Position numbers and translations under genes: made by a program. A DNA stretch of 36,800 bases from Acutalibacteraceae bacterium (lineage in GTDB: Bacteria > Bacillota > Clostridia > Oscillospirales > Acutalibacteraceae): the NCBI GenBank assembly GCA_045660705.1, contig JAZREH010000070.1, forward strand, positions 1 to 36,800. The letters run 5' to 3'. Under the pieces are notes generated by a model, which ran no database searches, had not been told where the DNA came from, and saw only the letters and a list, made by a program, of their open reading frames with translations. Shown in pieces: positions 5,415 to 35,264 of the stretch; within the stretch, counting starts at the first letter, position 1, and the number at the start of each line of letters is the position of its first letter.

Positions 5415-5437
5415 TAATCTTTAAGTATAACAAAAAA

Positions 5438-5472: not shown

Positions 5473-5611
5473 TGTACCGCGGCGGCTCCCACAAATGGTG
5501 ATATGTGCAGAACAATACATGAAAGTGCATCTTGCAAAGCTTATTATCGATCTTCGCATATTGAGAAAGCATAATGTGAATAATAAATTAAAGTATATGT
5601 GAGGTGATATA

Positions 5612-7567: not shown

Positions 7568-7589
7568 AAGCAGAAAGGAGTTAATATCA

Positions 7590-7727: not shown

Positions 7728-7786
7728 AAGATTACACTTATCCAAATCAAACTCACAACAAGTCAATAAAAATGCGAAAAAACGCT

Positions 7787-7813
7787 GAAAACCCGCTAAT
7801 AAAGCGGGTTTTC
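7787..7813. terminator. bidirectional-looking intrinsic terminator
   Basis: AAAACCCGC (7788..7796) / GCGGGTTTT (7804..7812) with a 7-nt loop and A/T tracts on both sides. It sits after the 45-codon ORF (plus) and after the truncated amidase remnant (minus). Confidence 0.7.
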
Positions 7814-7854
7814 GGGTGTTTACATTTTGGGCGATAGCTTTAAAATCTATAGTA

Positions 7855-8016
7855 TTAACCGAATCCCCCGTGACCTGCATCAATTATAATAACAGGGCGG
7901 GGGTCGTTGTCGGCTTTGGCGTTTATAACAGCATCGCGGATAATTCCTACACAAACAAGCGAAAAAATCATTATAACTGTTATAATTTGTGAAGCGAATC
8001 GCCTTAAAAAGCGCAT
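7855..8016 (-). pseudogene. 5' remnant (53 codons) of a CwlD-like N-acetylmuramoyl-L-alanine amidase
   Basis: ATG at 8016..8014. Translation is MRFLRRFASQIITVIMIFSLVCVGIIRDAVINAKADNDPRPVIIIDAGHGGFG then TAA. The TM helix plus IIIDAGHGG is the N-terminal signature of Amidase_3/CwlD enzymes, but the reading frame stops right after it and no other frame continues the family. Confidence 0.6.
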
Positions 8017-13152: not shown

Positions 13153-14022
13153 TTATTTAAGTATGTTAAAATAATGTTCCAAAAATGAATCTCTATCAGC
13201 CGATACAGCAACCCTGCAACGCGATTCTGCGGTGGGGTCGCCCTCACGAAGCACCGTAAATCCCCTTGCAGGACCCTCTCCAAGAATTACCTGCGGAATA
13301 CCGTTTACATATTTGCATATGCTGTCGTCAAGCGCAACCGCACCCGCAAGCGGGTCGTGGAAGATAACCTGATTACGCCATGCATCAAGCAGGTCATATA
13401 CAGGCAGAAGATTCTTCTTTTTAGTGCAACGCTCTTTCATTTCCTCGTGAGGAATAGACACCGTAAGGGTAACATCAAGCGGCACAACCGTAAGCCTTTT
13501 ATAACGCGCCCTGAAAACCGCCTCGGCGGCTTCGGGATCGCATTTTATATTCCATTCATCGTGACATTTTGTACGGAAATCGCCGCCCATTATAACCACT
13601 TCATCAAGCAGTTCAGCATCATCGGGATACTGCGCAAAAAGCAGTGCAATATTGGTAAGCGGTCCAATACAAAGCAGGGTAATCTCATTTGGATTTGCAT
13701 TTATTTTCTGATGCAAAAACTCGACCGCCGAGATATCGGCAAAGTCCTCGCTGTACTTCCACTTGCCGATTTTTTCGCTCTGTCCGGCAAGTTGCTGTGG
13801 TGAACTTGCCATACACAGCGGCTTTTCATTACCGACACAAATCGGTATATCCTTGCCGGCCTGTGTGCATAAAACGCTTGCAATCTTGGCGCGCTCGTAC
13901 GGCTTGCCCGTAACGGTGGTTATGCCAAGCAGGTCACACTCATCATTAGAAAGCAGATAGGACAGGCAGAGTGCATCGTCGATATCATAGCCGATATCGG
14001 TATCAAGCAATACTTTTTTCAT
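13153..14022 (-). CDS. inosine-uridine-preferring nucleoside hydrolase family protein (cytoplasmic)
   Basis: 289-aa ORF. The N-terminal aspartate cluster VLLDTDIGYDIDDA (DxDxxxDD) and CIGPLTNIA are typical of the IUNH family. Its ATG overlaps the stop of the upstream GH43 gene (TGATG). Confidence 0.85.
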   Translation of the reverse strand: MKKVLLDTDIGYDIDDALCLSYLLSNDECDLLGITTVTGKPYERAKIASVLCTQAGKDIPICVGNEKPLCMASSPQQLAGQSEKIGKWKYSEDFADISAVEFLHQKINANPNEITLLCIGPLTNIALLFAQYPDDAELLDEVVIMGGDFRTKCHDEWNIKCDPEAAEAVFRARYKRLTVVPLDVTLTVSIPHEEMKERCTKKKNLLPVYDLLDAWRNQVIFHDPLAGAVALDDSICKYVNGIPQVILGEGPARGFTVLREGDPTAESRCRVAVSADRDSFLEHYFNILK

Positions 14023-17000
14023 CAGAAAACCCCCAAAAGATGTTTTTTAAGTTTAGTCATATCGGCAACATCGACCGAATAGTTTCCGTCGATATCCGCC
14101 GCCTCAACTGTGATTTTCGTACCCTGTACAGCAAGATGTTTTTTAACCCTTACAAGGTCACGTATATCAATATCGCCGTCATCGTTGGCATCGTAAAGGT
14201 CGACACCCTGCGGCATATAATAATACGCGGCGGTAACAGAAGGTGAAGGCCCTGCATTTTTGACGGTATAGGATAATTCCTCGCTTACGCGCGCACCGTC
14301 AATTAAAAAGCCAACAAAACGGTAGTTTTCACCCGCGGGCGAAATATTCTTCTTCACCGATACCGTTATATCCTCGCCGCGTGTGGCAAGCGCCTTTTCG
14401 GGATAAAGCACAACACCGCCGTAATTTACGGTAAGATAGTTTGGTGTGCCCACGCGCATAATACGAAGATTTTTTAATGTCACAGGACAGTCCACAGTCG
14501 AATAATCAAGCCGCAGATAGAGTCTGCCGTCGGTTACATTTATCCCGTTTACGGTAAGTCGGCGGGTATAGGTAGCACCGCCCGAAAGCAGACTGCTACG
14601 CATCTCGCCCGATGGACTTGCAGTCGGGTTTGCCTTTAGTATACAACTGCCGATACCGTCACATGCCGAAACATCTACACTTACGCAGTATGTGCCGTTT
14701 GCAAGGCCTGTAAACTGCTTGTGAACATACCCCGACACTCCGTTATTTAGTGTGACGGTTTCATTTTCGTCACCTGTTACATGTGACGGCTCACTAAACG
14801 ACATGGCATCAAACCCAATATTGGTTACCTTGTCAAAATCATACTCGTTTTTAAGCACAGGCGATGCAACATCGCCCTGCTTGCCCGAAAACGCCATACG
14901 CAACAACTCAATACCGTCAACTTCGATTTTAGCGTTACTGTCGGTATTTGAATACCACATCATAACCGTGATACTGTTATTTGTAACCGCGATATTGTCA
15001 ATCGTTCTGACAGTCCAATCCTCAAAAACCGACTGTGCAAGTTGGTCGTAATACTCCTTACCTCCGACATTTGCCATAAATTTGGCACTTTTCTGACCCG
15101 CAGTATTCTTTACATAAAAACGCAGAGAATAAACGCCGTTTGGAACGGTAATCGGACCGGTAGAGATTGCGGTGCCGCTTGTCGTACCGCTTATGCGTAT
15201 GTGACTGTTACTCTTAATCCCGCCATAGCGAAGCGACAGATTTGCGTGTGCGGCAAACTTTTCGTTGGGGACTTCAATCGACATATCACATAGCGTATCC
15301 TGTTCGGGTATAAACATAATATCCGAAAATTCCATACGCCTGTCATCCGTCGCCGTTGGTGCCCAGTTTTCAATATCAATCCTTGCGTTGCCGTCGGTCA
15401 ATATAATATCTTTTATCTCAACTGTTGTTTCATCGGTAAAGTTATTACTTGGCGTCAGTTTAATCTGCTGTTTTTGACCCGATGGCGTAACAACGCGGAT
15501 ATATGTGTCATTATTAAGTCTGCCCTTTAGTGTCGCCTTAAGGGTATAGGTACCCTCGGTTACAGGAACGGTTGCCGAAATAAGGGTGTTTAAAAACGGA
15601 TTGTTCGGGTTTTCGTACCGTCCGCGCGCATCAACCGTCATAACAAGTTTTTTACCGAATATATTTTCGGGTGACTCAACACACTCGACAAACCCGTATT
15701 TAAAGCCATTTCCCGAGAATCGGGCAGGGTCAACCTCAATCTTGTGTGTGTGGTCGCTGACCGTTACAAGTTCGGGTGTTGCCGTTTCTTCAAGCCCCGT
15801 TTCTGGGGTGATGTTTATACCTTCAAACACGCTGTTTGCGTAGACACTTCTGACACCGACACTGCCGAGTGTATACGGGTCGCGTTTGTCAGCATAACGA
15901 AGCACCTGCACCCCGTCAAGATAGACCGTAATAACATTTCCAACCGCCGACACCTTAAGTTTTGCCGACCTGCCCGCCGTCACATTACATTTAGCAGTAG
16001 CAAGTGTAGTATACTCGGTAATTCGGTGTTTTTCGAGGATAATCTGTCCGTCCTCGATACCGACATAGTAGGCACGCTGGAAATACGCATCGCAAAGGTA
16101 CGGACTTTCACGAAGACCCGTTAAAACAGAGGTCGCGCGGAAAATAAAGCCCGCACTGTCGCCCTTGTTTAATGTTACATTGCCCTCTATTGAGTAATCG
16201 CCCCAACCGCTGTCGCCGACCAGCGCTTTACCGAAAGACTCGGCATTGCTGTATACCATTTTGCCGTCAGTTACCTGCGGTTCGGTTTCATATACCGTCC
16301 ACGCATCGGTATTGTTCGCGGCGTTTGTATATGCAGAAGATTTGCTGTCGGCAAGGACATTAACCTCGTAAAGTTCACCCGAACCCTTTGCAAAAAAGAT
16401 ACCAAGTGTCTGTTTACCTGCCGAAAGTTTTATATTTCGTATCGAATATGTGTTATATCCGTCGAATGAGTTACCGTCGGCGGGGATAACGACGCTCTTT
16501 ACAGCCTTGCCGTCCTGCATTACACAGACGGTTAAATCCTCAGCCAGTCGGTTAAGTTTCAAATCAACGGTGTATGTGCCGCTTTGACGGGCATTTATTT
16601 TGTAACTGAGCATCTGACCCGCATTTACCGAAACAGCGTTTCCGAGTTCTTCACCCGATGCATCGCATACCATAAAGCCGTCATTTATATTATTTGCCTG
16701 AACGGCTGGAATCTTTGACGGTACGGGTTTTACGCTTTCATATTCGCAACTGCCGTATGTTTTTCCGCTGAACGCAGTAAAGCCGCACTCGGCACCGCTT
16801 TTGCCGATAAAGTAACCGATTTTTCCGCCGTTTACGGTGTCATTGTGGGTTATGCGCTCTACCCCGTCCAAAAGACCGTAAATGTTGTCGGCATCCTGCT
16901 TTATAACGATACTGTGAAGTGATTCATACGCAAAGGTATCATTTAGTGCGGATGTTTTTGTCCAGACCGCCTTGCCGTCAACAAATTTCTGTATAACAAA

Positions 17001-18200
17001 GACCTTGTTTGCCTTGTCGATATATGCGCGACCGTAATTCATTGAGTCAACATAGCCAAATGTTACATATGAAACATCGGTTTTGTTCTTTAAATTAAAT
17101 TCTGCGCTGAATATATCGCCCGTCGTTTGTTTAGTCAGCAAGGTTGCACCCGCCGAAAGGGACAAAAGCCCGTCCTTTGCGGTGGCGTTACCGCTGTTTG
17201 TCCAACTGTTAAGCGTAGCATCCTCAAAATAATCGTAAAAATCGGGCAGTTGGGGACCGTCAATTTCGTGGGTAGTAGGACCCTGAACGCAAAGTTTTTC
17301 ACCGTTAAAGGTAAGTTTATCAAGGTTTATACGGCGCGAGAAAGACGCACCCCTTACATTGTATGAATTATGATAAACAATATAGTATGTATCAAGGTCG
17401 GGGCCGACAACGATACCGTTATGACCAAGACCGACATTGTCATCACCCTCGGTATTAAGCAGTACTATATTGTCGTTTTCCTCGGTAAAATTGTCGTCAA
17501 GATTGTGGGAATATGCGTATTCAACGCGGTAATTCTTTTCCCACACCTGATTACCTGTATAGGTAAGGTAGTATACACCCTTACGCTTGAACATCGTGGG
17601 ACCCTCGGTCCAGCGCATTTCGGGGCGGGAGTTTGCAATACCCGCATTATACTTATAATACGGTTGCGAATAGTCGGTGGGACCCGACATTTTCTTGACC
17701 CTTACACCGTTAAATTCACCGCATAAGAAGTAAAGGGTGTTATCGCCGTCCATAAAAACTGTGCCGTCGATATAGTTTTCATCAAGTTTTTCGCTGATAA
17801 CGGTAAATGGGCCTGTGGGCGAATCACTGACATAGAAATAGTGACCCAATCCCATGGGCGAGCCATACATATAAAACTTACCGTCTATGTAGTATACTTC
17901 GGGCGCATACAGATTGTCGTATGCGGGGTTGTCGGCGGGTTTGCCCGCCATAACATCGCCGTAAAAATCCCAGTTTATAAGGTCGCGCGATGACCAGCAG
18001 TATGTAATAGAATAACTTACCGCATAAAGGTAGTAAACACCGTTGTACTTCATTATATACGGGTCGCCGATTTGATTGCCGACCTTGTTCGGTTCGGTGT
18101 TTGTCGGTGGCACAATCGAGTTTTTATACGCCCCGACAGGAATACCGCACACAATCAGCATTGTAAATGACAGGAACAATGCGTACATTTTTTTTAACAT
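14022..18200 (-). CDS. secreted multi-modular GH43 glycoside hydrolase with CBM-like modules and a C-terminal type-I dockerin
   Basis: Signal peptide MLKKMYALFLSFTMLIVCGIPVGA. The GH43 propeller has the three catalytic-residue contexts GDPYIMKY, YIDGTVF and WTEGPTMF. It is followed by a LamG/ConA-like module, a CBM6/35-like module (SGTYTVDLKL), a second LamG/DUF1080-like module (WGDYSIEGNVTL..GFIFR), three beta-sandwich modules with the NG-Y signature (TEGTYTLKATLKG, PNGVYSLRFYVKNTAGQ, ANGTYCVSVDVSACDG), an InlB-B-repeat-like segment, and the dockerin. Confidence 0.85.
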   Translation of the reverse strand: MLKKMYALFLSFTMLIVCGIPVGAYKNSIVPPTNTEPNKVGNQIGDPYIMKYNGVYYLYAVSYSITYCWSSRDLINWDFYGDVMAGKPADNPAYDNLYAPEVYYIDGKFYMYGSPMGLGHYFYVSDSPTGPFTVISEKLDENYIDGTVFMDGDNTLYFLCGEFNGVRVKKMSGPTDYSQPYYKYNAGIANSRPEMRWTEGPTMFKRKGVYYLTYTGNQVWEKNYRVEYAYSHNLDDNFTEENDNIVLLNTEGDDNVGLGHNGIVVGPDLDTYYIVYHNSYNVRGASFSRRINLDKLTFNGEKLCVQGPTTHEIDGPQLPDFYDYFEDATLNSWTNSGNATAKDGLLSLSAGATLLTKQTTGDIFSAEFNLKNKTDVSYVTFGYVDSMNYGRAYIDKANKVFVIQKFVDGKAVWTKTSALNDTFAYESLHSIVIKQDADNIYGLLDGVERITHNDTVNGGKIGYFIGKSGAECGFTAFSGKTYGSCEYESVKPVPSKIPAVQANNINDGFMVCDASGEELGNAVSVNAGQMLSYKINARQSGTYTVDLKLNRLAEDLTVCVMQDGKAVKSVVIPADGNSFDGYNTYSIRNIKLSAGKQTLGIFFAKGSGELYEVNVLADSKSSAYTNAANNTDAWTVYETEPQVTDGKMVYSNAESFGKALVGDSGWGDYSIEGNVTLNKGDSAGFIFRATSVLTGLRESPYLCDAYFQRAYYVGIEDGQIILEKHRITEYTTLATAKCNVTAGRSAKLKVSAVGNVITVYLDGVQVLRYADKRDPYTLGSVGVRSVYANSVFEGINITPETGLEETATPELVTVSDHTHKIEVDPARFSGNGFKYGFVECVESPENIFGKKLVMTVDARGRYENPNNPFLNTLISATVPVTEGTYTLKATLKGRLNNDTYIRVVTPSGQKQQIKLTPSNNFTDETTVEIKDIILTDGNARIDIENWAPTATDDRRMEFSDIMFIPEQDTLCDMSIEVPNEKFAAHANLSLRYGGIKSNSHIRISGTTSGTAISTGPITVPNGVYSLRFYVKNTAGQKSAKFMANVGGKEYYDQLAQSVFEDWTVRTIDNIAVTNNSITVMMWYSNTDSNAKIEVDGIELLRMAFSGKQGDVASPVLKNEYDFDKVTNIGFDAMSFSEPSHVTGDENETVTLNNGVSGYVHKQFTGLANGTYCVSVDVSACDGIGSCILKANPTASPSGEMRSSLLSGGATYTRRLTVNGINVTDGRLYLRLDYSTVDCPVTLKNLRIMRVGTPNYLTVNYGGVVLYPEKALATRGEDITVSVKKNISPAGENYRFVGFLIDGARVSEELSYTVKNAGPSPSVTAAYYYMPQGVDLYDANDDGDIDIRDLVRVKKHLAVQGTKITVEAADIDGNYSVDVADMTKLKKHLLGVF
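14025..14198 (-). other. type-I dockerin module of the GH43 enzyme
   Basis: Two Ca-binding F-hand repeats: DANDDGDIDIRDLVRVKKHL and DIDGNYSVDVADMTKLKKHLLG. Confidence 0.85.
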
Positions 18201-18352: not shown

Positions 18353-18390
18353 AAAAACCCCCGTCCCCCTCCGGGGAGGGAGGCGGGGGC
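18353..18390 (-). terminator. GC-rich intrinsic terminator ending the long upstream operon
   Basis: On the minus strand: GCCCCCGCCTCCCTCCCCGGAGGGGGACGGGGG followed by TTTTT (18357..18353). It starts ~38 nt after the stop at 18428. Confidence 0.75.
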
Positions 18391-18427: not shown

Positions 18428-20509
18428 TCAGATAAGTCCTGCCATACGCTTTTTAGCGTTGATAAGGTCAAGGATATCGACACTACCGTCGCCGTTTACA
18501 TCGGCAAATTTATCGGTAAGTTCGCCCGCACCGATAAGACGCTTGCGAAGTTTAATAAGGTCGTCTACATCAACCTTGCCGTCGCCTGTTGCATCACCGC
18601 GAACAAGTGCGGCAGTTATAATATCCTCAACGATACCGGTTACAGGGTTGGTTAACCACTGCTCACCCTTTACGCCGAAATCGGCAACCGAAAGGGTCTT
18701 GTCGACGGTTGCCTCAGTAACCTTGCGATAAGCAAAACCGTCGAAGTGGTGTTCAACACCCGAACCGCCAAACCAAATAAATATCTTTGTTGCGCCTGTG
18801 CTATCGGTCTTGAATCTAACCTGTTCTGTAACCCAACCGTTACTTGCGGTATAACCGAGTTTAGAACTTGACGCCGTACCGCTGCTGATTGTTATATCGC
18901 CGATTGCGGTAGTTTTGCGGTTAAAATACATAATATATTCGGTATTGGGTTCAAGTGTTATATTACCGGTTGTGCTACCGCCACCCGCGTGTTTTATTTC
19001 GCTGTTGCTCATAATTGCGGAATTGCGAGTAAAACGGGTTGGCGTAGATTTGCACCAAGGGAATGATGTATTGTCGATTGAAACCTCATTGAGTTTTTCA
19101 ATCTTGAAACCGTCAAAGGTAAATGTAGTATCCTGTGCTACCGCAGGTATCCACCAACCGTAGTGACCGGCGGTACCCGTTACATAGAACTGTGAGGAAA
19201 TGTACTGCCAACCCTCGTCTGCTTTAAGATTGAATTTATTGGTGTATCTGCCGGCATTTACATCACTGCCGTTGCCGCCCCACCACTCAAAGTTATTTAC
19301 ATCGTGAGAAACCTTTACATAAGCACTTATTACATAGAAACCGGGGTCAATGTTTTTAATGGCAGGGGCGAAGAAATTGGCTTTGCCGGCTGCCAATGTC
19401 ATTTCTGCCTCTTTGCCACTTACAAAACCGCCGTTTTTAACCGTAAAACGGGCATCGTTTTGTGTGAAGGTGGAAAATTCTGCATAACCCGTGGGATTGT
19501 CACTGCGCTTAATAACCGAAAGACCGTCGAAACGAATCCAAGTGTCATTTACAGAAGCGTCAACCGAAAGCCACGATTTAATCCAGATAACTCCCGAAAG
19601 ACCTGTTGTAAACTCAACTTCCTTTAAATACCAACCGTTTGCATCGTTAACAATACTTACGCCGGGTTTTGAGGTGTTTTCACCGTTATGCTCACTAAAG
19701 GTTAACTGCTCATTATTATAGGTGAAAACATTTAAATTACCGTTAACCGTACCCTGAGTAGTGCGGTTATATGCATAAAAATACATTGTATATGTGGTAA
19801 GGGGTTCAAGAACAAATCGCTTGGTAAGAAGTTTACCTGTGCCCCATTTTGTTCCCAAGTTAGCACCGAATGACGAAGATGTAACGGTCTTTACATTTGT
19901 ATCCGTAAGAGCGCCGGCAACACCAGACTGATCAAGCATTTGAAGTTTTTTAAGTTTAAGGTTGTCAAGGCGTATCCAGGTGTTCTTTGTTACACCTGTG
20001 GTTTCATCGGTATATACATTCGCATTAGAAGCACCAAACCAGACAAGACCAACATAAACATAACCATTAGTTACATTACATACGATTCTAACGCCCTTGT
20101 TCCAACCGTTTGTATAGTTGAAACCGTTAACCGTAATCTCTGTTGCAGAGGTAGTGCCGGTGTTAACACCAATCTTAGCAGAAGGTGCCAAATCATCAGC
20201 GGTATTGATATCGCCCGAAGTCATAATATCAAACGAAAATTCATACAAACCGTTTTCAAGTTCATCTATTTTAGAAGTATTACCAAAACCAGCTGTTGCA
20301 CTTCCGTTAAATACAATACTGGTTGTGTCTTCGGGATTCGGACCAGGCAGTGTTGAACAGGCACCACCAAAGAGTTTATTGTCGATTTCGATGTTATGCG
20401 CGCCACCTGATAAAATCGCATCAGCAGCCGAAGCGGGGATCATAGTCATCGGCACAAAAAGTGCCACAACCATAAGAATGCTAATAAAAATACTAATTAA
20501 CTTTTTCAT
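18428..20509 (-). CDS. secreted non-catalytic protein: four CBM-like beta-sandwich modules (A-B-A-B) + type-I dockerin
   Basis: Signal peptide MKKLISIFISILMVVALFVPMTMIPASA. The modules end in WIRLDNLKLKKL, WIRFDGLSVIKR, FTFDGFKIEKL and HHFDGFAYRKV. I recognise no hydrolase motifs. It is a paralogue of residues 1-530 of the upstream 1544-aa protein. Its ATG overlaps the upstream stop (ATGA). Confidence 0.8.
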   Translation of the reverse strand: MKKLISIFISILMVVALFVPMTMIPASAADAILSGGAHNIEIDNKLFGGACSTLPGPNPEDTTSIVFNGSATAGFGNTSKIDELENGLYEFSFDIMTSGDINTADDLAPSAKIGVNTGTTSATEITVNGFNYTNGWNKGVRIVCNVTNGYVYVGLVWFGASNANVYTDETTGVTKNTWIRLDNLKLKKLQMLDQSGVAGALTDTNVKTVTSSSFGANLGTKWGTGKLLTKRFVLEPLTTYTMYFYAYNRTTQGTVNGNLNVFTYNNEQLTFSEHNGENTSKPGVSIVNDANGWYLKEVEFTTGLSGVIWIKSWLSVDASVNDTWIRFDGLSVIKRSDNPTGYAEFSTFTQNDARFTVKNGGFVSGKEAEMTLAAGKANFFAPAIKNIDPGFYVISAYVKVSHDVNNFEWWGGNGSDVNAGRYTNKFNLKADEGWQYISSQFYVTGTAGHYGWWIPAVAQDTTFTFDGFKIEKLNEVSIDNTSFPWCKSTPTRFTRNSAIMSNSEIKHAGGGSTTGNITLEPNTEYIMYFNRKTTAIGDITISSGTASSSKLGYTASNGWVTEQVRFKTDSTGATKIFIWFGGSGVEHHFDGFAYRKVTEATVDKTLSVADFGVKGEQWLTNPVTGIVEDIITAALVRGDATGDGKVDVDDLIKLRKRLIGAGELTDKFADVNGDGSVDILDLINAKKRMAGLI
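18431..18601 (-). other. type-I dockerin module of the 693-aa protein
   Basis: DATGDGKVDVDDLIKLRKRLIG and DVNGDGSVDILDLINAKKRMAG. Confidence 0.85.
19562..19813 (-). repeat. DNA-level paralogous segment (B module), copy 1; partner at 24280..24513
   Basis: It encodes VLEPLTTYTMY..NVFTYNNEQLTFSEHNGE..PGVSIVNDANGW..FTTGLSGVIWIKSWLS. Long identical nucleotide runs are shared with copy 2, e.g. ATACAT[T/C]GTATATGTGGTAAGGGG[T/C]TCAAG. Even the antisense shadow ORFs share ESHDL.QITPE.PVV. Confidence 0.8.
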
Positions 20510-23500
20510 AATGCATTTTTTCCTTTCTTCTTTTTATTCAAGAAAATTATTACTAAAACGGTTAAACCTGCTACAACAAGTACGCCGCCCGCAATTGCTA
20601 TCCAAGTAATCGGACTTGACACTATGTTGCCCTTTTTCTCTACCGTTAAGGTATCAAGTTCGGGTGATTTGGGTCGGTTTTCGGACGGTTTTATTAGTTC
20701 GATTACCTCCTCAACGGGTGCATCGTACTTGGGTCCTTCCCCGCCCTTATAATCCATAATCTTCATATCTCCCTGATACTCCAGTTTGATATCGTCGATA
20801 TATGCCCATTCGCCGGGTTCTACACCTGCCCAGATGCCGACAAGTATCTTACCTTCAGAAACATAGATATCCCGTGTTTCGATTCGCGACCATGTGTCGA
20901 TACTGTACTTAAACTGAGTGTTGATTCCTTTTTCGGCAATTGATGTTGTGTTTACGAAGATATGACCTGACGAAAGACCGCCGCTTGATTTAACCATTGC
21001 AGAAATGGTGTAGTATCCGTTGGGCAGGTCGGTCATATTAAAGCTCGTGCCGCCGCCTACAGACTTGTCTGCAACACCCACAACCAATTTAGTAGCGCTG
21101 TTATATCCACCCGATGTGAGCGTGATCGCACCCTGTTTGATAAGTTTTCCCTTAGGAACCACAAACTCGGCGGCGTAGGGGAATTTAATTTCGCCCCCTT
21201 GTTTACCATTGGTACTTACCTTTCGTATCTCAAAGTCGGTGACTTCAAGCCACTGTTCTGCCGATGTAGACGCATAGAAAATACCGAAGAATAGGTAGCC
21301 GTTTTTAACCGTAATATTTTTTATATATACCTCCTTCCATTCTTTAATGGGCTGTGACAAATCAAGAACTTCCTGCGTTTTAACCTCGGGTCCCGCATTT
21401 ATGCGGATCGAGGCATTACTCTGACCGCCCGAACTTCTTACCTTGGCGGCGACGGTATACTGACCGTCTTCAAGTGTACCCTCTACAAACGACTTATAGA
21501 AGGTAACACTTCTGTCAGGTTCACCCTTGATTACCAATTTATTACCGTCATCTCCGTATGCTGAAAGATGATAATAATTGTAGTTATCGTAGTCTTTGTT
21601 ATATGTAAGATTCCAAGTTGAGTTATTGATGCGGTAGAAATATTCGTACTTTTCGCTATCTATACCGATATCTCCCGTACCCTCACGCAAAAGTTCAATC
21701 CCGCACATTTCAAGTTTTTGTCCCGCGTCTGCACCGCCATACCAAAAACCAATATCAAGTTTACCGTTTGTAACCTTGATATCACTAAGTTCGACAAGTA
21801 CCCAATCGGGTATATTGTACTGCATCTGGATATTTTCCTCTTTGCCGTTATTGGCAATGATTTTTGCAGCAAGTTGACCGCCCGTACTTCTTGCATAACC
21901 GCGAAGTGTGTATGTACCGTCTTCAAGGTCGCCTTTGGCACCAAAGTACCAACTACCATTTGGCAGATTACCGTCAATAAGGATGGTGGTTTCACCCGCC
22001 CAACGACCCGTACCGCCCCTCACGTTTTTGGTGTCACGGGTAAACATTTCGGGATAAAGGGTCTTTTTCCACTCATACTGTTTTTCGGTTACAGCAGGAC
22101 CCTTACCAAGGCGTTTAATCTGAATACCGTCGATTTCAAAGGTTTTGCCTGCAACCGAATTTACCGAAAGCGAAACATAAAGTTTGCCATTTTTAACCTC
22201 AACCCCACGAAGTTCAACCATTTTCCAGTCGGAATATGCGCCGCTAAGGTTATTTGAAGTAACAATACAGTTGCCCGACGAAGCCTTTAGGTATGCGTGG
22301 TTATGACCGCCCGACGAACGAATCTTTGCCGTTACGGTATAGGTGCCGTTTTCAAGGTTTGCAAGACTTCTGTAAAGGGTTGCAGAAAAATCGCTGTCGC
22401 GTGTGATTGTCATACGAGAATCGGTAACCGCACCACCTGCATTAAGGGTAAGATAGTCATAAACCGAAGTGGCAGTAGGACGGAGCGTTGCATTATTTAC
22501 TGTGATAATCTCCGCATACTCCTCTGTGGGAAGTTTTTCTTCCGCTTTAGGCTCACCAACAAGGTGAAGTTGAACATTTTTAAGTTCAAATTTGTGGTCG
22601 AGGTTATTACTGTCATACCATACGCCGATAGCAAGTTTATTATCCGAAACCTTAATATTTGTGATTTCAACCTTTACCCAACCATTGATTTTGTGGAACA
22701 GTTGACGCGCAAGTTCAGTACCGTTATTGGCAATAAGTTTTGCCGAAGACTGACCGCCTGTATTCTTTACATATGCGGTAAGGGTGTAGGTACCGTTTTC
22801 AAGGTTATTTACACCGCCTGCATACCAGGTGCCGAATGCGCCACTATTAGAATTGGTTATAACCAGTTTTCTTGACTTACCGTCGTCCTCGTTATAAACA
22901 CATTTGGGCAGTTCCTTTGTAAAGTTATCAACAGGAACATCGATTGTTTCCTTGTACGTTACGGTAGGTGTCTGAGAATCGGTTTCACCAACCTTTTTAA
23001 CCTGAAAACCGTCGATTTCGATTTTTTGTCCCACATCCTGCGAAACGGTCAATGCAAAATAAAGATAATTGCGGTCAACAACAATATCCTGCTGCTGAAT
23101 AAGTATCCAGTCGGTATATTCAGCGTTATAGTTTCTACCCTTAACCTCGGTATACTGCTGAGGTGTGGTATTGGTTGTAAAACGAACCGCCGCCTGACCG
23201 CCCGTTGAACGGATATAGGCAGAAACGGTATATGTGCCGTTTTCTATTGTACCGTTCATAAGGTCATAAAAGGTAATTGTTGACGCGGTATCGGTAGTAT
23301 AAACAATCCGCGAATCGGTAATTTTACCGCCTTTTTCGTATGTGACCCTATCTTTGTTTGAACTATCCGAACCGGTAAAGCCCATACTGAAGTTATTATA
23401 GGTCTTAATCTTTTCGTATTTTTCCTTTTTGGGAGGATTTAAAAGCGGTGTTACCTCAAGAGCATAGATACCGCATTTATTTGCAGCAATCTGCAGCCCC

Positions 23501-25140
23501 TCTTTGATATCGGTTGCAGGGGTAATAACGATTGTTGGTTGTGCGCTTTGAAGTTTACGGTAACCGACCGAATCAATCTGAAGCGTACCGCCTATGTTTG
23601 TAGCAGTCAGTTTAATCTTACCTGAAGCGGGCGCCTTAACCTTTATCTGCGCTACCGCAAAATCGTTTGACGAAACATCAAGCGAAATACTGTCATTCTT
23701 TTCAGCCTCTGCTTTAAGTTCGCCCTCGCTGACACCGTCTGCCTTATAGCGTACAAAAACAATGTATTCCTTGCCCGCATCAAGTGTAAGTTCGGGGATA
23801 GTATTACCTGCACCGAGTGTCACCGCCTCAGCGTACTCAACCTTAAAGCCGTCAACCGAAAGCCAACCGTTTTGGTCACTGTTATACGAAAGACCAACAT
23901 TCAGCGTACCGTTTGTCACATTTACCGCGGTTGAGAAATATGTCCACTTATCAATGGGGGCATTCTCGGTGCCGTTTTCGATAACGGTATTTACATCATT
24001 TGCAAAAAGTTTTGTTGTGGCAGAGCCGCCCGAACTCTTAAAGTAGCCGCTGACGATATACATACCGTTTTTCACACTCTTATGGGTGGAGGATACGGTA
24101 TATTCGCTGCCAGTACCTGTAAGTTTAAGTTCGTTACTGCCGATAAATCCGCCTGCCTCAACCGCCGCGTTTACATTTGCGGTGGAATCAATCTTGTTAT
24201 TATCGACATAACCCTGTATTGAAGAACCTTCCTTTGCAATCGAAAGTCCGTTTATATAGAGTGTGGCCGACGGATTTGAAAGCCACGACTTAACCCAGAT
24301 AACACCCGAAAGTCCCGTTGTAAAGGTGAGTTTCTTTACAATCCAGTTGCCCGTAGAATCGGCAATCGAAACGCCTGGGTTTGCAACCTTTTCGCCGTTA
24401 TTTTCACTGAAAGTGGGTTGGTCGTTATTATATGTGAAAACATTGAAAGTACCGTTGAAACCTGTGTTTGAAACAGGAATATACATCGTATATGTGGTAA
24501 GGGGCTCAAGCACATAGCGACCTGTAAGCAGGAAATTTCCCGGAACGACAATAAGCGATTTCGGTGAAACATAGGTCTTTGCGGTGGTTTTACCCGCGTT
24601 TATGGCATTGATATCAAGTTCCGTTACCTTTTCGACGGTTATGTTATCAAGTTTAATCCAAGTACCCGCGGGACCTGTGTACCACATAACACCTACCCAG
24701 ACATAGCCGTCGGTAACATCCGCCATAACCTGAACGGTGGTCCATTCGGTATAGTTTGCGGCGTTCAAAAATCTTTCGCCTGTGTTTTGTCCGTTTACAT
24801 TGGCGCCGAGTTTTACACTTGACTGACCGCCCGAACTTTTAACATCGAAACTGATTGCATAAAGACCGTTTTCAAGTTCAATCTTGCGGGTCGCGCCGAA
24901 AGATTTGCCGTTAGGGTCGGCTTTTATCATAACGCTATCGTTTGAAACCGACCCAGGCTCATTCACACAGAAATTTGTAAAAAGCGAGTTGAAATAGTGC
25001 CTTTTTTCGGAAAAAGGCTCGGTTATATAACCGTCGTCTGCATCCGCTTTGACGATATTAGGGAGTTTAATTGCAAGCGGTGTGCAGATAATCAGCGCCG
25101 CCAAAAGAATGCTTAAAATTTTAACGGATGTTTTCTTCAT
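20506..25140 (-). CDS. secreted, C-terminally membrane-anchored non-catalytic protein built from ~10 CBM-like beta-sandwich modules
   Basis: 1544 aa with signal peptide MKKTSVKILSILLAALIICTPLAI. There are eight modules with the signature [EPK]-[ND]-G-x-Y-x-[VLI]-x-[AG]-x-x-[KR]-[SN]-[ST]-G-G (e.g. LENGTYTLTAYVKNTGGQSSAKL) plus two B-type modules (LEPLTTYTMY.., LDAGKEYIVFVRY..). The C-terminal TM helix ITWIAIAGGVLVVAGLTVLVIIFL (20539..20610) is followed by NKKKKGKNAL. No catalytic motif recognised. Confidence 0.8.
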   Translation of the reverse strand: MKKTSVKILSILLAALIICTPLAIKLPNIVKADADDGYITEPFSEKRHYFNSLFTNFCVNEPGSVSNDSVMIKADPNGKSFGATRKIELENGLYAISFDVKSSGGQSSVKLGANVNGQNTGERFLNAANYTEWTTVQVMADVTDGYVWVGVMWYTGPAGTWIKLDNITVEKVTELDINAINAGKTTAKTYVSPKSLIVVPGNFLLTGRYVLEPLTTYTMYIPVSNTGFNGTFNVFTYNNDQPTFSENNGEKVANPGVSIADSTGNWIVKKLTFTTGLSGVIWVKSWLSNPSATLYINGLSIAKEGSSIQGYVDNNKIDSTANVNAAVEAGGFIGSNELKLTGTGSEYTVSSTHKSVKNGMYIVSGYFKSSGGSATTKLFANDVNTVIENGTENAPIDKWTYFSTAVNVTNGTLNVGLSYNSDQNGWLSVDGFKVEYAEAVTLGAGNTIPELTLDAGKEYIVFVRYKADGVSEGELKAEAEKNDSISLDVSSNDFAVAQIKVKAPASGKIKLTATNIGGTLQIDSVGYRKLQSAQPTIVITPATDIKEGLQIAANKCGIYALEVTPLLNPPKKEKYEKIKTYNNFSMGFTGSDSSNKDRVTYEKGGKITDSRIVYTTDTASTITFYDLMNGTIENGTYTVSAYIRSTGGQAAVRFTTNTTPQQYTEVKGRNYNAEYTDWILIQQQDIVVDRNYLYFALTVSQDVGQKIEIDGFQVKKVGETDSQTPTVTYKETIDVPVDNFTKELPKCVYNEDDGKSRKLVITNSNSGAFGTWYAGGVNNLENGTYTLTAYVKNTGGQSSAKLIANNGTELARQLFHKINGWVKVEITNIKVSDNKLAIGVWYDSNNLDHKFELKNVQLHLVGEPKAEEKLPTEEYAEIITVNNATLRPTATSVYDYLTLNAGGAVTDSRMTITRDSDFSATLYRSLANLENGTYTVTAKIRSSGGHNHAYLKASSGNCIVTSNNLSGAYSDWKMVELRGVEVKNGKLYVSLSVNSVAGKTFEIDGIQIKRLGKGPAVTEKQYEWKKTLYPEMFTRDTKNVRGGTGRWAGETTILIDGNLPNGSWYFGAKGDLEDGTYTLRGYARSTGGQLAAKIIANNGKEENIQMQYNIPDWVLVELSDIKVTNGKLDIGFWYGGADAGQKLEMCGIELLREGTGDIGIDSEKYEYFYRINNSTWNLTYNKDYDNYNYYHLSAYGDDGNKLVIKGEPDRSVTFYKSFVEGTLEDGQYTVAAKVRSSGGQSNASIRINAGPEVKTQEVLDLSQPIKEWKEVYIKNITVKNGYLFFGIFYASTSAEQWLEVTDFEIRKVSTNGKQGGEIKFPYAAEFVVPKGKLIKQGAITLTSGGYNSATKLVVGVADKSVGGGTSFNMTDLPNGYYTISAMVKSSGGLSSGHIFVNTTSIAEKGINTQFKYSIDTWSRIETRDIYVSEGKILVGIWAGVEPGEWAYIDDIKLEYQGDMKIMDYKGGEGPKYDAPVEEVIELIKPSENRPKSPELDTLTVEKKGNIVSSPITWIAIAGGVLVVAGLTVLVIIFLNKKKKGKNAL
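20776..23418 (-). repeat. tandem array of six ~140-150-aa modules (protein-level repeat, period ~420-440 nt) arranged as (a-b)x3
   Basis: Approximate module borders are aa 575-716, 722-860, 870-1010, 1020-1152, 1160-1308 and 1315-1455 of the 1544-aa ORF. Odd modules share GG..TDSR..T...F/Y leaders and ..E(I/V)(D/T)(G/D)(F/I)(Q/E)(V/I)(K/R)(K/R) ends. Even modules share K(L/I)IANNG and (I/V)G(V/F/I)W(Y/A). Confidence 0.75.
24280..24513 (-). repeat. DNA-level paralogous segment (B module), copy 2; partner at 19562..19813
   Basis: It encodes VLEPLTTYTMYIPVSNTGFNGTFNVFTYNNDQPTFSENNGEKVANPGVSIADSTGNWIVKKLTFTTGLSGVIWVKSWLS. See copy 1. Confidence 0.8.
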
Positions 25141-25142
25141 AC

Positions 25143-27698
25143 TTATACTCCCTTTCTCTTTTTATTTATAAGTAATACCGCAAGTACACCGACCGCGATA
25201 ATCACCGCCGCGCCAAGTCCGATACCGACAAACGGAATAGCGTTTGAACCGCTGTTCCCTGCTACCGTTTCAAGTGTCATATCGGGAACCGAAACCGAAA
25301 CGGTTTTAAGGTCGCTTTCAAGCGGGGCGATATACAGATTATCAAACTCGGCAGAACCTGCCGCCGCGCGGAATCCCGCCGCACCCGACATATACGGGTT
25401 TGATGTATCGGTATAACTGAACAGTTCGGTGTCATCGACAAAGCAGGTTATGGTCGAACCGACACAGGTCACCTTAATATGGTATGTACCCATCTTTACA
25501 AGACCTTTGTTCAGTTTAAGAAGTGTCTTTTTCTCGGACTGGAAGTGCTTTTCAAGGAAAATTCCCTTGTTTGAAAAACCGATATAATATGCGTTATGCT
25601 CATACTGGTCGGTGGTTTTTTCGATATTGTCGAAGAACTGATTTGTGCGGACAATTATTCCGGCGGTTGAGCCGTCAAGGTAGGTCATATCCGCCTCAAT
25701 CGAATAGTCACCCCAAGAACTTTTACCGACAAGCACCTTACCGTAGTTTGAAAGTTTTTTAAGTCCCATTTTTCCGTCCTTAAACGATGGCGGGTTTTCA
25801 TAACTCTTGAAGAAAAATTTGCCTTCCTTATCGTAAAGACTGTCGCAACTGTTGGCAAGTTTAGTGGTTTCGGTGTAGTCATTTATATGCACCTGATACA
25901 CCTCGGCACCGCCCTTTTCAAGGTAAAGTTTTACGGTGTTTTTGCCCTTTTTCAGTGAAATATTTCTTACAGAATAGGTGTTATAGGCGTCCTCATTCTT
26001 TTTACTTTCGGGAATCTTTACGCCCGCCTTTATCACATTATCGGCGGTAACCGCAAGGGTTGTATCCTTTTCGACCTTGCCGAGTGTGATATCAAAACTG
26101 TATACGCCGTCTGCCTTTACATTTGCATCAAAGGTCATAAACTGACCCTTTTTAAAGGCAACCGCACTACCCGTTTTGCCGTAGGAAGCAGGTGTTACGG
26201 TGAGGTCTTTTACATTATTTGCGTGAACCGCATCGTTGTTACCCGGCACTACCTTTTCGGTATCGTAGTCGGCACTGCCCATAGCCTTGTCGGAAAATGC
26301 GGTGTAGCCAACCTTAATATCGGAATTTTCAGCGATATATCCGATTGCGCCGCCAACCGCCGGCATAGCGTGACGGCTCTTTTCGGTGCCGTCAAGATAA
26401 ATTATCGTGGTATCTTCGGTCTGCTGAACCTTTATCGCGTGGTTGGCGTTGTAGGCAAAACCGTCGTTAAGAGGACTGCTCTCACTCCACAAAACGGTGC
26501 CGTCTTTTATAAATTCGGTCTTAATTGATGCCGACTTCTGGTCAAGATATACCCTGCCGTAGTTCTTGTTATCGGTGTAAGCAAAGACCGCCGCCGCATA
26601 GCCAGAATTATCGGTGGTATAAAGATTCATTTCGGCAGAATAGACCTTTTCGGTCTTTTTCTTTGAAATAAGGGAAATTTTATCGCCCTTTTCAGCACTT
26701 ATAAAACCGTCGGCATATTCCCAACTCTGACCCGTTTCAAATTCAGAGGTATCATTCTTTTCAAACCAGACCGCGAAGTCGGGCATGTCGGGATCAGCAA
26801 CCTCGTGCGAGGACTGACCCTGTACATAAGGCTTTGTACCGTTAAATAGTATCTTGTCAAGGTCGATATGACGGTCAGCATTGGTTCCCGTAACCTTATA
26901 GGTATCGTGATAAATGATATAATAGGTATCAAGGTCGGGACCGACAAGTATACTGTTATGACCAAGTCCCTTTATTTCACCCTCGGTATTAAGGGTAAGC
27001 ACATTGTTTTCAGGCTCGGTAAATCCCTTTTGGAGGTCATCGGAAACGGCATATTCAACGCGGTAGTTGGGAAGTAAAACATTGTTACCCGTATATGTAA
27101 GATAGTATGTGCCGTTGCGCTTGAACATTGTCGGACCCTCGGTCCAAAGGTCGGCAACACTTACCTTGAAATAATCATTATTGCTTACGAATGTTGTGGG
27201 GCTGGTAAGGGTGGTATAGTTTACGCCGCCGCTTCCGCACCAGAGAAAGTAACGGGTGTTATCACCGTCGGTAAATACAGTGCCGTCGAACTGGCGGCCT
27301 GTATTTTCTGTGATAAGTTTAAACGGTCCTGTAGGTTTATCACTTTTATAAACATAGTGACCCTTACCAAACGGGGCACCGTACATATAGAAAGCACCGT
27401 CGAGGTAGTATACTTCGGGGGCGTACATTGCATAATGCACTTTTTTATCGAGTGATTCATCAAGAAGTTCGCCCTCGCTCTTCCAATTTACAAGGTCCTT
27501 CGATGACCAACTTTTAATATTGCCCTCCGACATATAAAGGTAGAAAATACCGTTGTACTTAAGAATGTACGGGTCGCCGCCCTCGAATATCTTTCCCTCG
27601 CTGTCTGCAAGCGGGTTTTGATATGCAGCTACACCAAGGGGTACTGCACACATAACAAGTACCATACAAAGAACAAGCGAAATCAGTCTTTTAATCAT
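25143..27698 (-). CDS. secreted GH43 glycoside hydrolase with LamG/CBM-like modules and a C-terminal membrane anchor
   Basis: I place the start at ATG 27698 (AAGAGGT 6 nt upstream, ATGA overlap with the upstream stop), not 27734. Signal peptide MIKRLISLVLCMVLVMCAVPLGVAA. The GH43 triad contexts GDPYILKY, QFDGTVF and WTEGPTMF are present. The LamG-like, CBM6/35-like (DGVYSFDITL) and DUF1080-like (WGDYSIEADMTY) order matches the dockerin paralogue. The protein ends in TM helix IPFVGIGLGAAVIIAVGVLAVLLI (25167..25238) + NKKRKGV. Confidence 0.85.
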   Translation of the reverse strand: MIKRLISLVLCMVLVMCAVPLGVAAYQNPLADSEGKIFEGGDPYILKYNGIFYLYMSEGNIKSWSSKDLVNWKSEGELLDESLDKKVHYAMYAPEVYYLDGAFYMYGAPFGKGHYVYKSDKPTGPFKLITENTGRQFDGTVFTDGDNTRYFLWCGSGGVNYTTLTSPTTFVSNNDYFKVSVADLWTEGPTMFKRNGTYYLTYTGNNVLLPNYRVEYAVSDDLQKGFTEPENNVLTLNTEGEIKGLGHNSILVGPDLDTYYIIYHDTYKVTGTNADRHIDLDKILFNGTKPYVQGQSSHEVADPDMPDFAVWFEKNDTSEFETGQSWEYADGFISAEKGDKISLISKKKTEKVYSAEMNLYTTDNSGYAAAVFAYTDNKNYGRVYLDQKSASIKTEFIKDGTVLWSESSPLNDGFAYNANHAIKVQQTEDTTIIYLDGTEKSRHAMPAVGGAIGYIAENSDIKVGYTAFSDKAMGSADYDTEKVVPGNNDAVHANNVKDLTVTPASYGKTGSAVAFKKGQFMTFDANVKADGVYSFDITLGKVEKDTTLAVTADNVIKAGVKIPESKKNEDAYNTYSVRNISLKKGKNTVKLYLEKGGAEVYQVHINDYTETTKLANSCDSLYDKEGKFFFKSYENPPSFKDGKMGLKKLSNYGKVLVGKSSWGDYSIEADMTYLDGSTAGIIVRTNQFFDNIEKTTDQYEHNAYYIGFSNKGIFLEKHFQSEKKTLLKLNKGLVKMGTYHIKVTCVGSTITCFVDDTELFSYTDTSNPYMSGAAGFRAAAGSAEFDNLYIAPLESDLKTVSVSVPDMTLETVAGNSGSNAIPFVGIGLGAAVIIAVGVLAVLLINKKRKGV

Positions 27699-28651
27699 TC
27701 TGTTACCTCTTTTCTTTCTATGATCGGTCCGCATACATTATTACGGTCACACACAAGTTTGCCATCTTCTATCAAAAGTTCAGCCAACTGAACATAAGAA
27801 CGGTGTTCCTTATAGGTAATATTATCGTTTTCTATTCTTCCGCTGTAACGGTCAAAGTTCAGTGTAAAGTAAACTATAAATGCGCGGTCGCCGCTTACAA
27901 ATATATCGGCATGGTGTCCGTTATTCTTGTCATACGCCCTTGTACCTGGGGTGTTTAAAATATGTGTTTCGTACTTCCAATCGGTGGCATCGTCCGAACT
28001 GTATACCGAAAGACCGTCCCAAGAATCGACAATCAGCCAATATTTTTCTTTCCAATAAAACACATTAGGACCCTCATTGGCGTAGTCGTGCATCGCATAA
28101 CCCTTTTCTTCCCATTTTATAAGGTCTGTACTGTCTGCATAATAACAGCCGCAACGATTATCGTTACAACGCTTATACCACATACGCCATCCGCCGTTAT
28201 AGGGTATGATTGCGGGATCAATAACACCGTCTTCCATATCAACCATAGTAACAAAATCCCAGTTCCACAAATCGCGCGATACATAATGTGCGGTGGTATA
28301 ATCCTTGCGCCACGTCTTTGAAACACCGCTTGAATAGGTTACAAACATGTGATACACATTGTCAGCCTTTATGATTTCGGGCGCCCAAAAGGTGTTAAGC
28401 CCCTCCTCAAAATTAAGCGATAGTTCACCTTTATAATTGAATGTCAAACCACCGTCACCTGAAACAGCGACACCAATCTGTGTGCCAAAATACCATTCGT
28501 TTTGTTCACACTCAAGGTCGCCGCGGCGTGCAGTATAAAACATCCACAATTCGTCAGTGACATCATTATATAACAGCATCGGGTCGGCAGGTGCGAAATG
28601 CACGGGGTCCTCGAAAAGCGGGGTATTTATTATATTTTTATTTTCTGTCAT
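27695..28651 (-). CDS. cytoplasmic five-bladed beta-propeller glycoside hydrolase, GH43-like
   Basis: No signal peptide. GH43-style motif contexts are present: APADPMLLY..WMFYT, FWAPEIIKADNVYHMFVTY, VIDPAIIPYNGGWRMWY and NEGPNVFYWKEKYWLIV. I prefer the start at ATG 28651 over the TTG at 28660 (better SD spacing). Confidence 0.6.
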   Translation of the reverse strand: MTENKNIINTPLFEDPVHFAPADPMLLYNDVTDELWMFYTARRGDLECEQNEWYFGTQIGVAVSGDGGLTFNYKGELSLNFEEGLNTFWAPEIIKADNVYHMFVTYSSGVSKTWRKDYTTAHYVSRDLWNWDFVTMVDMEDGVIDPAIIPYNGGWRMWYKRCNDNRCGCYYADSTDLIKWEEKGYAMHDYANEGPNVFYWKEKYWLIVDSWDGLSVYSSDDATDWKYETHILNTPGTRAYDKNNGHHADIFVSGDRAFIVYFTLNFDRYSGRIENDNITYKEHRSYVQLAELLIEDGKLVCDRNNVCGPIIERKEVTE

Positions 28652-28666
28652 TTTAATCAAACCTTT

Positions 28667-33167: not shown

Positions 33168-33800
33168 TCACATACTGATGTGATTCAATACTTCGCGCAA
33201 AACGGTTGTAACAAAGGATAAAATCTTACCCATAACGCTGACATAAAACAGAAGTATAAATATCAAAATCAGCATAGCCAAAACTGTAGCAATCGCCATT
33301 CCTATTGTTTTTGACGCCGTATACTCATGAACAACGCAAAGTCCCACAAAGGTAATAAACACAAAGTAGACGGTACCAATCATAATAAATGCGTTTAAAA
33401 TGATTATCTCCTCACGGATGACAAAATTACTGATAAGCACACCCGCAAGGGTACAGAAAATTTTTGGCACCATAGCATACGCAAGGGTCATCAGAATATC
33501 AGATATCTTTCCGTTTCCGTCAAAAAGCGTCGTAACACTCCAGTTGCCGACGGCAAAGATTATATACGGAAAAATCGCCGCCGCAAAAACAAAAATGTTA
33601 TTTACATCTACCGTGTTCCAACTTCTTACCATAAAACCCGAATAGTTCATTCGGATAACCTCGGTAAAACCGCAAAGTGCGTATATCAGCGTTATCAGAA
33701 AATAGTTCTTACGCCGTATAAAACGCGCCTCATAAAATCCGTCAAACGGGTGCACAAGTATGTAGAAAATGAATTTTATATCGCTTACAAGACTTTTCAT
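33168..33800 (-). CDS. Yip1-family polytopic membrane protein
   Basis: 210 aa. The N-terminal HPFDGFYEARFIRRKN segment followed by ~5 TM helices is the usual bacterial Yip1-domain layout. Its ATG overlaps the upstream stop (ATGA). Confidence 0.65.
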   Translation of the reverse strand: MKSLVSDIKFIFYILVHPFDGFYEARFIRRKNYFLITLIYALCGFTEVIRMNYSGFMVRSWNTVDVNNIFVFAAAIFPYIIFAVGNWSVTTLFDGNGKISDILMTLAYAMVPKIFCTLAGVLISNFVIREEIIILNAFIMIGTVYFVFITFVGLCVVHEYTASKTIGMAIATVLAMLILIFILLFYVSVMGKILSFVTTVLREVLNHISM

Positions 33801-35245: not shown

Positions 35246-35264
35246 ACAGTCACTTCCCTTAAAT

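Follow-up and report, generated by a model that had tools for sequence, protein, structure and literature searches.

A 36.8-kb stretch of an Acutalibacteraceae genome (positions 1 to 36,800 of contig JAZREH010000070.1, assembly GCA_045660705.1; hereafter the window) contains a long minus-strand glycan locus, in which two adjacent open reading frames (ORFs) code for proteins made of repeated modules that resemble carbohydrate-binding modules (CBMs). These proteins, designated A (1544 amino acids, aa) and B (693 aa), raise two questions, namely whether their repeat represents an undescribed CBM family, as was proposed in an earlier reading made from the letters alone (the sequence-only reading), and what such proteins could do next to glycoside hydrolase (GH) genes. 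The results make a joint answer probable: the main repeat, called here the A-type module, is a divergent CBM61, and proteins A and B are multivalent, non-catalytic glycan binders.

Both ORFs were found at the places and with the lengths given earlier (20506-25140, 1544 aa, and 18428-20509, 693 aa, both on the minus strand), and the count of 14 modules was borne out, with eight A-type and two B-type modules in protein A and two of each type in protein B. The eight copies of the NG-x-Y...K-S-S-G-G signature reported for protein A correspond to regular-expression matches at aa 90, 357, 633, 781, 930, 1073, 1224 and 1373, and protein B gave one degenerate match. A hidden Markov model (HMM) of the eight protein A copies recovered each of them at expectation values (E) of 1e-40 to 1e-46. 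It also recovered the copies that had been noted as degenerate in protein B (aa 61-166, E 4e-10; aa 354-476, E 3e-9) and the three noted in protein C, a GH43-dockerin protein (aa 875-943, weak; aa 989-1101, E 4e-24; aa 1149-1252, E 1.5e-8). All 13 copies, which lie within about 11 kb, were confirmed with an HMM made of non-window sequences only, and the terminal [IL]-[ED]-x-D-G strand described earlier was found in most of them. By sequence comparison the 13 copies are homologous repeats and not chance resemblances. The A-type module is a beta-sandwich of about 130 aa, and the six tandem C-terminal copies of protein A are spaced by about 148 aa. Pairwise identity between copies is only 18-34%, which indicates old duplications and not recent DNA repeats.

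The features of the two proteins are as follows; Trp154 and Phe156 are residues of TmCBM61, the solved structure with which the modules are compared below, and AF2 denotes AlphaFold2.

20506..25140 (-): protein A ORF, 1544 aa, as called in the sequence-only reading
25045..25140 (-): protein A signal peptide, aa 1-32, ending ...NIVKA before DAD, read by eye from the translation
24598..24993 (-): CBM61 module A1, aa 50-181, Trp154-equivalent Trp present (HMMs and residue alignment)
24211..24597 (-): B-type module Ab1, aa 182-310, an unclassified beta-sandwich and remote A-type relative
23803..24210 (-): CBM61 module A2, aa 311-446, Trp154-equivalent present (HMMs and residue alignment)
23536..23802 (-): B'-type module Ab2, aa 447-535, weakly related to Ab1 and Bb2
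22963..23388 (-): CBM61 module A3, aa 585-726, Lys/Glu at the Trp154/Phe156 positions
22531..22932 (-): CBM61 module A4, aa 737-870, Lys/Glu at the Trp154/Phe156 positions
22084..22494 (-): CBM61 module A5, aa 883-1019, the copy modelled with AF2, best fold match TmCBM61
21655..22068 (-): CBM61 module A6, aa 1025-1162, Lys/Glu at the Trp154/Phe156 positions
21190..21624 (-): CBM61 module A7, aa 1173-1317, Trp154-equivalent present
20749..21159 (-): CBM61 module A8, aa 1328-1464, Trp154-equivalent present, Tyr at the Phe156 position
20539..20610 (-): protein A C-terminal hydrophobic anchor, aa 1511-1534, followed by NKKKKGKNAL, read by eye from the translation
18428..20509 (-): protein B ORF, 693 aa, its start overlapping the protein A stop by 4 nucleotides (nt)
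19916..20377 (-): degenerate CBM61 module B1, aa 45-198, Trp154-equivalent present
19484..19906 (-): B-type module Bb1, aa 202-342
19064..19483 (-): degenerate CBM61 module B2, aa 343-482
18710..19048 (-): B'-type module Bb2, aa 488-600
18446..18598 (-): dockerin of protein B, aa 638-688 (Pfam Dockerin_1, 1.3e-6)

TmCBM61, from a Thermotoga maritima GH53 galactanase (PDB 2XOM/2XON), was reportedly described by Cid et al. in 2010 (J Biol Chem 285:35999) as the beta-1,4-galactan-binding founding member of CBM61. When a profile of 12 window modules was compared with all PDB sequences, it matched the C-terminal domain of a GH53 endo-beta-1,4-galactanase (9fli, E 2.8e-10; a literature search on this entry found no paper), TmCBM61 itself (2xom, 5.4e-4) and a GH31 enzyme (5x7o, 7e-3), which we take to be the GH31 alpha-1,6-glucosyltransferase carrying the CBM61 of the PMC10509167 discussion. 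The AF2 model of module A5 reached a mean predicted local distance difference test score (pLDDT) of 92, and in a Foldseek search of the PDB its first two ranks were 2xom and 2xon, with a template-modelling (TM) score of 0.80, a root-mean-square deviation of 2.1-2.2 Å over 124-125 columns and 22% identity, this being a superposition of a predicted structure on a solved one. Further matches (TM of 0.72 or less) were to CBM16, CBM4, CBM6, CBM35, Cry toxin domain III and tailspike domains. The likeness to CBM6/35 and CBM4_9/22 suggested by the sequence-only reading therefore holds for the fold but not for the family, since these structures ranked below TmCBM61.

The same family emerged from a transitive comparison. 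When 1.84 billion cluster representatives were searched exhaustively with HMMER, the module profile found 1572 hits at E of 1e-3 or less, 373 of them at 1e-10 or less, and 318 module instances from 145 of the 1572 hits were used for a family HMM that included no window sequence. With this HMM, TmCBM61 reached 86.4 bits (E 8e-29, valid for this one comparison; the sequence scored was the 126 of 152 chain residues printed in the PDB alignments), modules A1-A8 reached 50-82 bits, and the copies in proteins B and C scored lower yet significantly. The family consensus reads LpNGtYtLsAWVkssGGq ... Wtqv.I.nI.VTnGq.tiGf ... AG.W..fDDveL, and the NG-x-Y...K-S-S-G-G signature is thus one version of the strand-hairpin motif typical of CBM61. 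Of the 318 outside modules, 69 have the strict [KR][SNT][ST]GG form, and a looser SGGGQ-type form is common in modules attached to GH53.

GH53 was also the commonest catalytic partner of the homologues: Pfam found it in 12 of the 63 hits scanned, and the BLAST cluster whose two tested members are GH53 contained 28 of the 149 top hits; clusters with GH30 and GH43 tested members held 8 and about 10 of them. In the window the CBM61 partner is the GH43 of protein C. CAZy families are defined by sequence, and the CBM61 partners listed in CAZy are GH53, GH30, GH43, GH31, GH16 and GH66. Published genome analyses report galactan loci whose GH53 and GH30 enzymes carry CBM61 (PMC5320581, PMC3617157).

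Taken by profile hits, fold match, transitive HMM and the GH53/GH30/GH43 partners of their relatives, the A-type modules are placed in the known CBM61, as divergent members, and not in a new family. They share with TmCBM61 the fold, the sequence family, the consensus strand-hairpin, a core Trp and the terminal D-D/G strand, but identity is only about 20%, the window modules are not attached to GH53, and up to eight copies occur in one protein that has no catalytic domain. The sequence-only reading had named beforehand a confident hit to a known CBM family with a known ligand as an outcome that would tell against its undescribed family, and such a hit was largely what was obtained, with the caveat that the ligand does not transfer.

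The architecture of the two proteins fits with a binding function. Neither Pfam nor NCBIfam found a catalytic domain in A or B, in line with the earlier impression that both were free of hydrolase motifs. Protein A consists of a signal peptide, a CBM61/B-type/CBM61/B'-type cassette, a short linker, six tandem CBM61 modules and a membrane anchor; no LPXTG motif was seen in the translation of its C-terminus. Protein B has a signal peptide, the same four-module cassette and a C-terminal type I dockerin, whose translation shows the duplicated Ca-binding segments, both of the form D-x-[DN]-x-D-G. Across the four modules, protein A (aa 1-533) is paralogous to protein B (aa 1-600), with 30% identity and an E of 5e-59. 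The dockerin of B, the anchor of A and this paralogy had been overlooked earlier.

Two smaller observations concern protein A. Between the cassette and the six tandem modules lie 57 aa (aa 536-592; 23365-23535, -), beginning TIVITPATDIKEGLQIAANKCGIYALEVTPLLNPPKKEKYEK..., which are 60% conserved in an orthologue and gave no match to anything; this segment may be a linker or a small unknown element. At the start of A3 (aa 599-658; about 23167-23346), GTA_spike_fiber, a phage head spike fibre domain, was the sole NCBIfam hit on the protein, at a sub-threshold 27 bits (cut-off 36), and probably reflects common jelly-roll features.

Proteins A, B and C form a conserved unit. An orthologue of protein B (P0011) lies on a 25.5-kb Logan contig, L081, whose gene order is that of the window: ABC (ATP-binding cassette) permeases, GH43-like, GH43, a 1549-aa protein, P0011, GH43-dockerin, a nucleoside-hydrolase-family gene and GH35. 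Protein A and the 1549-aa protein share 67% identity along the full length, and none of the modules is missing from the latter. On a third, more distant contig (L082, 46% identity), an A-like C-terminus made of two CBM61 modules and a transmembrane anchor is followed by a B-like cassette with dockerin and then by a GH43 with CBM61 modules and dockerin, so that the A/B/C order is kept in all three. The ratio of nonsynonymous to synonymous substitution rates (dN/dS, Nei-Gojobori) between the window and L081 was 0.15 for A, 0.26 for B and 0.13 for the two large flanking GH43 enzymes, and 0.11-0.26 by module in seven of the eight A-type and both B-type modules of protein A (A3 was not computable, its dS being saturated); saturation of dS at about 1.5 makes all these values rough. 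The trio is under purifying selection, and the values of the modules are similar to those of the neighbouring GH43 genes. None of the GTDB representative genomes gave a relative of protein A in a contig scan. Relatives of the window GH36 were found at 80 loci, the best (84% identity) in metagenome-assembled genomes (MAGs) of uncultured Oscillospiraceae/Ruminococcus and many of the lower-ranked ones in ruminant-gut MAGs; no CBM61-like ORF was present near GH36 in these 80 loci.

Which ligand the modules could bind was approached through the residues that contact galactotriose in TmCBM61, namely N56, N66, W68, W123, W154 and F156 (supplement of PMC12309604). PDB numbering was taken as chain index + 14, which fits five of the six residues, and the alignment near W123 is uncertain. 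At the F156 position the window copies have E, K, S or T, except for Tyr in A8; A3, A4, A6 and C2 (the last in protein C) combine Lys at the W154 position with Glu at the F156 position. According to this alignment, the W154 equivalent is all that is left of the three-Trp platform (W68, W123, W154), and it is present in 5 of the 13 copies. Since the contacts of TmCBM61 are mostly replaced, its galactan ligand is not transferable to the window modules, and these residues do not allow a precise ligand to be predicted. Judged by the order of strands in the model, the signature hairpin would lie at that end of the sandwich where the strands bearing the W123 and W154 equivalents start.

Several points weigh against reading A and B as CBM61-based glycan binders. 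The W68 position, which is W or Y in 61% of the outside modules, is never aromatic in the alignable window copies. The W154 position, aromatic in 88% of the outside modules in the family HMM alignment, has Trp in the window only in A1, A2, A7, A8 and B1 and is Lys or Thr in A3-A6, B2 and C2; judged by these residues, some copies may lack sugar binding or may bind another ligand. CBM61 is moreover not mono-specific, as the CBM61 of a GH31 6-alpha-glucosyltransferase binds maltooligosaccharides (PMC10509167), so that beta-1,4-galactan binding should not be assumed here. No GH53 is encoded in the window, the signal peptide and membrane anchor of protein A were assigned by eye from the translation, and the roughness of the dN/dS values counts on the same side.

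The alternative that survives best would have most copies, above all A3-A6 and the B-type modules, serve as non-binding spacers, which would form a stalk projecting A1, A2, A7 and A8, or an extension spanning the wall. The Lys/Thr and Glu residues of A3-A6 at the Trp154/Phe156 positions, the absence of Trp68 from every copy and the lack of the hairpin signature in the B-type modules would all agree with this, and with a C-terminal membrane anchor protein A would need to span the Gram-positive wall. However, the module-wise dN/dS values indicate similar purifying selection on seven of the eight A-type and both B-type modules, and CBM61 uses more than one binding site and ligand (PMC10509167). 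In the L081 orthologue, Lys is retained in A3, A4 and A6, and the second residue is Glu in A3 and A4 and Gln in A6 (the C2 orthologue has Leu/Gln); the Lys-x-Glu pair kept in A3 and A4, with Lys-x-Gln in A6, suggests a maintained surface and not drift. A spacer role for most copies is therefore regarded as unlikely, and glycan binding by the arrays is preferred.

Within that preferred reading it is conceivable, if rather doubtful, that the Lys/Glu copies (A3, A4, A6, C2) and the four-module cassette recognise a ligand new to CBM61. A candidate may be an acidic or substituted pectic or arabinogalactan epitope, held by polar or charged contacts instead of aromatic stacking. If true, these copies would define a new specificity subgroup of CBM61, and the B-type module would possibly be a new CBM family. 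The partial loss of the aromatic platform makes the modules reasonable candidates for probing the ligand diversity of CBM61.

The second alternative is the one from which the question arose, an undescribed family without family-level kinship to CAZy CBMs. It could draw on the searches that remained empty or uninformative: Pfam gave only sub-threshold noise on excised modules and whole proteins (Y_Y_Y, CopC, Big_13, Wzt_C) and no NCBIfam model matched the modules, a word-based homology search found nothing for the module alignment and only protein A itself for protein A (a limit of the word index), and single-module phmmer against PDB returned spurious designed-repeat proteins. But no Pfam or NCBIfam model matched the modules of the CBM61-bearing proteins tested either, GH53-attached modules included, so that the silence of Pfam on the window modules is uninformative, and the PDB profile hits, the best fold match with TmCBM61, the transitive HMM scores of 50-86 bits and the common consensus signature all stand against it. 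For the A-type module this alternative is already largely refuted, and as a whole it is very unlikely.

The B-type modules, which have no family-level match, are the only part where the label of a new family might still be argued. The four of them (A 182-310 and 447-535; B 202-342 and 488-600) are mutually related and gave no match in PDB sequences or Pfam. An AF2 model of moderate confidence (pLDDT 72) had TM scores of 0.55-0.62 in Foldseek to a porphyran-binding CBM, CBM16, CBM22, Eph ligand-binding domains and Cry domain III. Nevertheless, in a profile-profile comparison even the B-type modules could be aligned over their whole length with the A-type module (hhalign 91%, E 9.5e-7, 119 columns). 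The B-type modules have no hairpin signature, and judged from these profiles they look like a strongly diverged derivative of the A-type module that has lost it. Further dockerin proteins (P0011, P0052, P0068, P0015) contain them in identical order. In P0015 (1002 aa), the CBM61/B-type/CBM61/B'-type cassette and a dockerin stand behind an N-terminal CE2-type acetyl esterase (CE2_N + GDSL), which indicates that the cassette is a portable unit used on enzymes too.

The third alternative, in which A and B are scaffoldins whose B-type modules act as cohesins for the dockerins of B and of the GH43 enzyme, takes its appeal from a membrane-anchored protein adjoining two dockerin-bearing ones and from cohesin-sized beta-sandwiches without an assigned family, and it can be dismissed as the least credible, because Pfam found no cohesin in A or B, none was among the Foldseek top 50 of the B-type model (pLDDT 72), and the B-type profile aligns with the CBM61-like profile. 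No cohesin was found among the window proteins scanned.

We return to proteins A and B as glycan binders. Protein A would most likely be exported as a type I membrane protein with an ectodomain of ten CBM-type modules, the eight and two modules providing multivalency and thus avidity for a polymeric ligand. Proteins B and C would be recruited through their dockerins to a cohesin-bearing scaffold. Together, A and B would most likely hold a galactose/arabinose-rich plant polysaccharide, the substrate class that the locus content suggests, at the cell surface and in the enzyme complex, and the GH43, GH35 and GH36 enzymes and the ABC importer of the locus would process what is captured. The absence of a catalytic domain, the CBM-type beta-sandwiches, the predicted export and the glycan locus thus agree with the surface glycan binders of the sequence-only reading, for which carbohydrate binding by these copies and a cell-surface location are the most likely assumptions.

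Surface glycan capture is far less understood in Gram-positive gut bacteria than in Bacteroidota. The analogy with SusE/SusF-like surface glycan-binding proteins (SGBPs) of Bacteroidota that was drawn earlier applies to function only: both are non-catalytic, multi-domain surface glycan binders beside enzymes and a transporter. SGBPs are outer-membrane lipoproteins that accompany SusC/D, whereas the proteins described here carry a C-terminal transmembrane helix or a dockerin and accompany an ABC importer; no SusC/D is present in the locus, where the transporter genes are ABC permeases, and no sequence relationship between SGBPs and proteins A and B was seen. A closer counterpart of protein B is Sas6 of R. 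bromii, a non-catalytic amylosome binder with CBM26, CBM74 and a dockerin, for which binding was shown experimentally (bioRxiv 10.1101/2022.11.20.514607). Both come from an Oscillospiraceae/Ruminococcus-type organism, are secreted, contain only CBMs and a dockerin, and are presumed to deliver substrate to a cohesin-dockerin complex, but Sas6 has other CBM families and a starch substrate, and protein B is known from its sequence alone. Protein A resembles metagenomic poly-CBM61 proteins (P0003, 1590 aa, 8 modules; P0004; P0005; P0013) in the signal peptide, the lack of a catalytic domain, the 2-8 CBM61 modules, the C-terminal hydrophobic anchor and the basic tail. These are not orthologues of A, several have LPXTG-like endings, and they are without the CBM61/B-type cassette. 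With such anchored proteins of up to eight modules in existence, the architecture of protein A is not unique.

The assignment corrects the tempting call of a new CBM family and illustrates that, as long as no profile or fold comparison is made, divergent CBM61 arrays resemble orphan repeats. It also adds a conserved trio from uncultured gut Oscillospiraceae, made up of a membrane-anchored protein with eight CBM61 modules, a four-module cassette joined to a dockerin, and an enzyme of the GH43-CBM61-dockerin type. In this trio, non-catalytic binders appear to act for the cell surface and for a cellulosome-like complex alike. Nothing in this goes beyond known principles.

The neighbouring features are as follows.

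14022..18200 (-): protein C, 1392 aa, with GH43, weak CBM35-like, laminin-G-like and three CBM61-like modules and a dockerin
15276-15626, 14874-15275 and 14427-14837 (-): protein C CBM61-like modules
14034-14195 (-): protein C dockerin
25143..27734 (-): protein D, an 863-aa GH43, directly upstream of A
18358..18377 (-): terminator-like hairpin and T-run 3' of B, within the 227-nt gap before C (consensus match only)

Genes D and A are separated by 2 nt, and A and B overlap by 4 nt. By Pfam, the same-strand surroundings comprise GH36, GH35, three GH43-type genes, DUF5696, Yip1 and ABC permeases. For the subfamily and substrate of the GH43 enzymes, comparison with PDB gave only distant matches (4qqs, 3kst and others), and an exact-sequence look-up of the GH35 protein returned no record. 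A 321-aa protein (27695-28660, -) with sub-threshold GH43 and BNR_2 matches has a counterpart at the same place in L081 (77% identity), and the matches suggest a five-bladed propeller whose family is uncertain. The GH43-dockerin gene is separated from GH35 by a gene of the inosine-uridine nucleoside hydrolase family (13153-14022, -; Pfam 2.4e-56), which overlaps the GH43 stop by 1 nt and is matched in position in L081 (84% identity, dN/dS 0.065). For a glycan locus it is an unusual, conserved member, and it might have a glycoside and not a nucleoside as substrate.

Among the ABC permease genes upstream of the GH43 genes, a DUF5696 protein of 866 aa (30560-33160, -; E 9e-115), a Yip1-domain membrane protein (33168-33800, -) and an NHL/TPR protein (33797-35389, -) were recorded. 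At the other end of the window, G+C rises from 0.37-0.38 in positions 1-8000 to 0.41-0.48 beyond about 8 kb, where the long minus-strand glycan locus starts; this step could be the boundary of acquired DNA or a mere difference in gene content. The low-GC flank carries a DUF5107 + TPR protein of 1070 aa (343-3555, -) and a DUF255/thioredoxin-fused six-hairpin-like protein of 651 aa (5612-7567, +); between the two lie an AraC regulator and a GFO/IDH/MocA oxidoreductase, and these genes may form a separate sugar-related unit.

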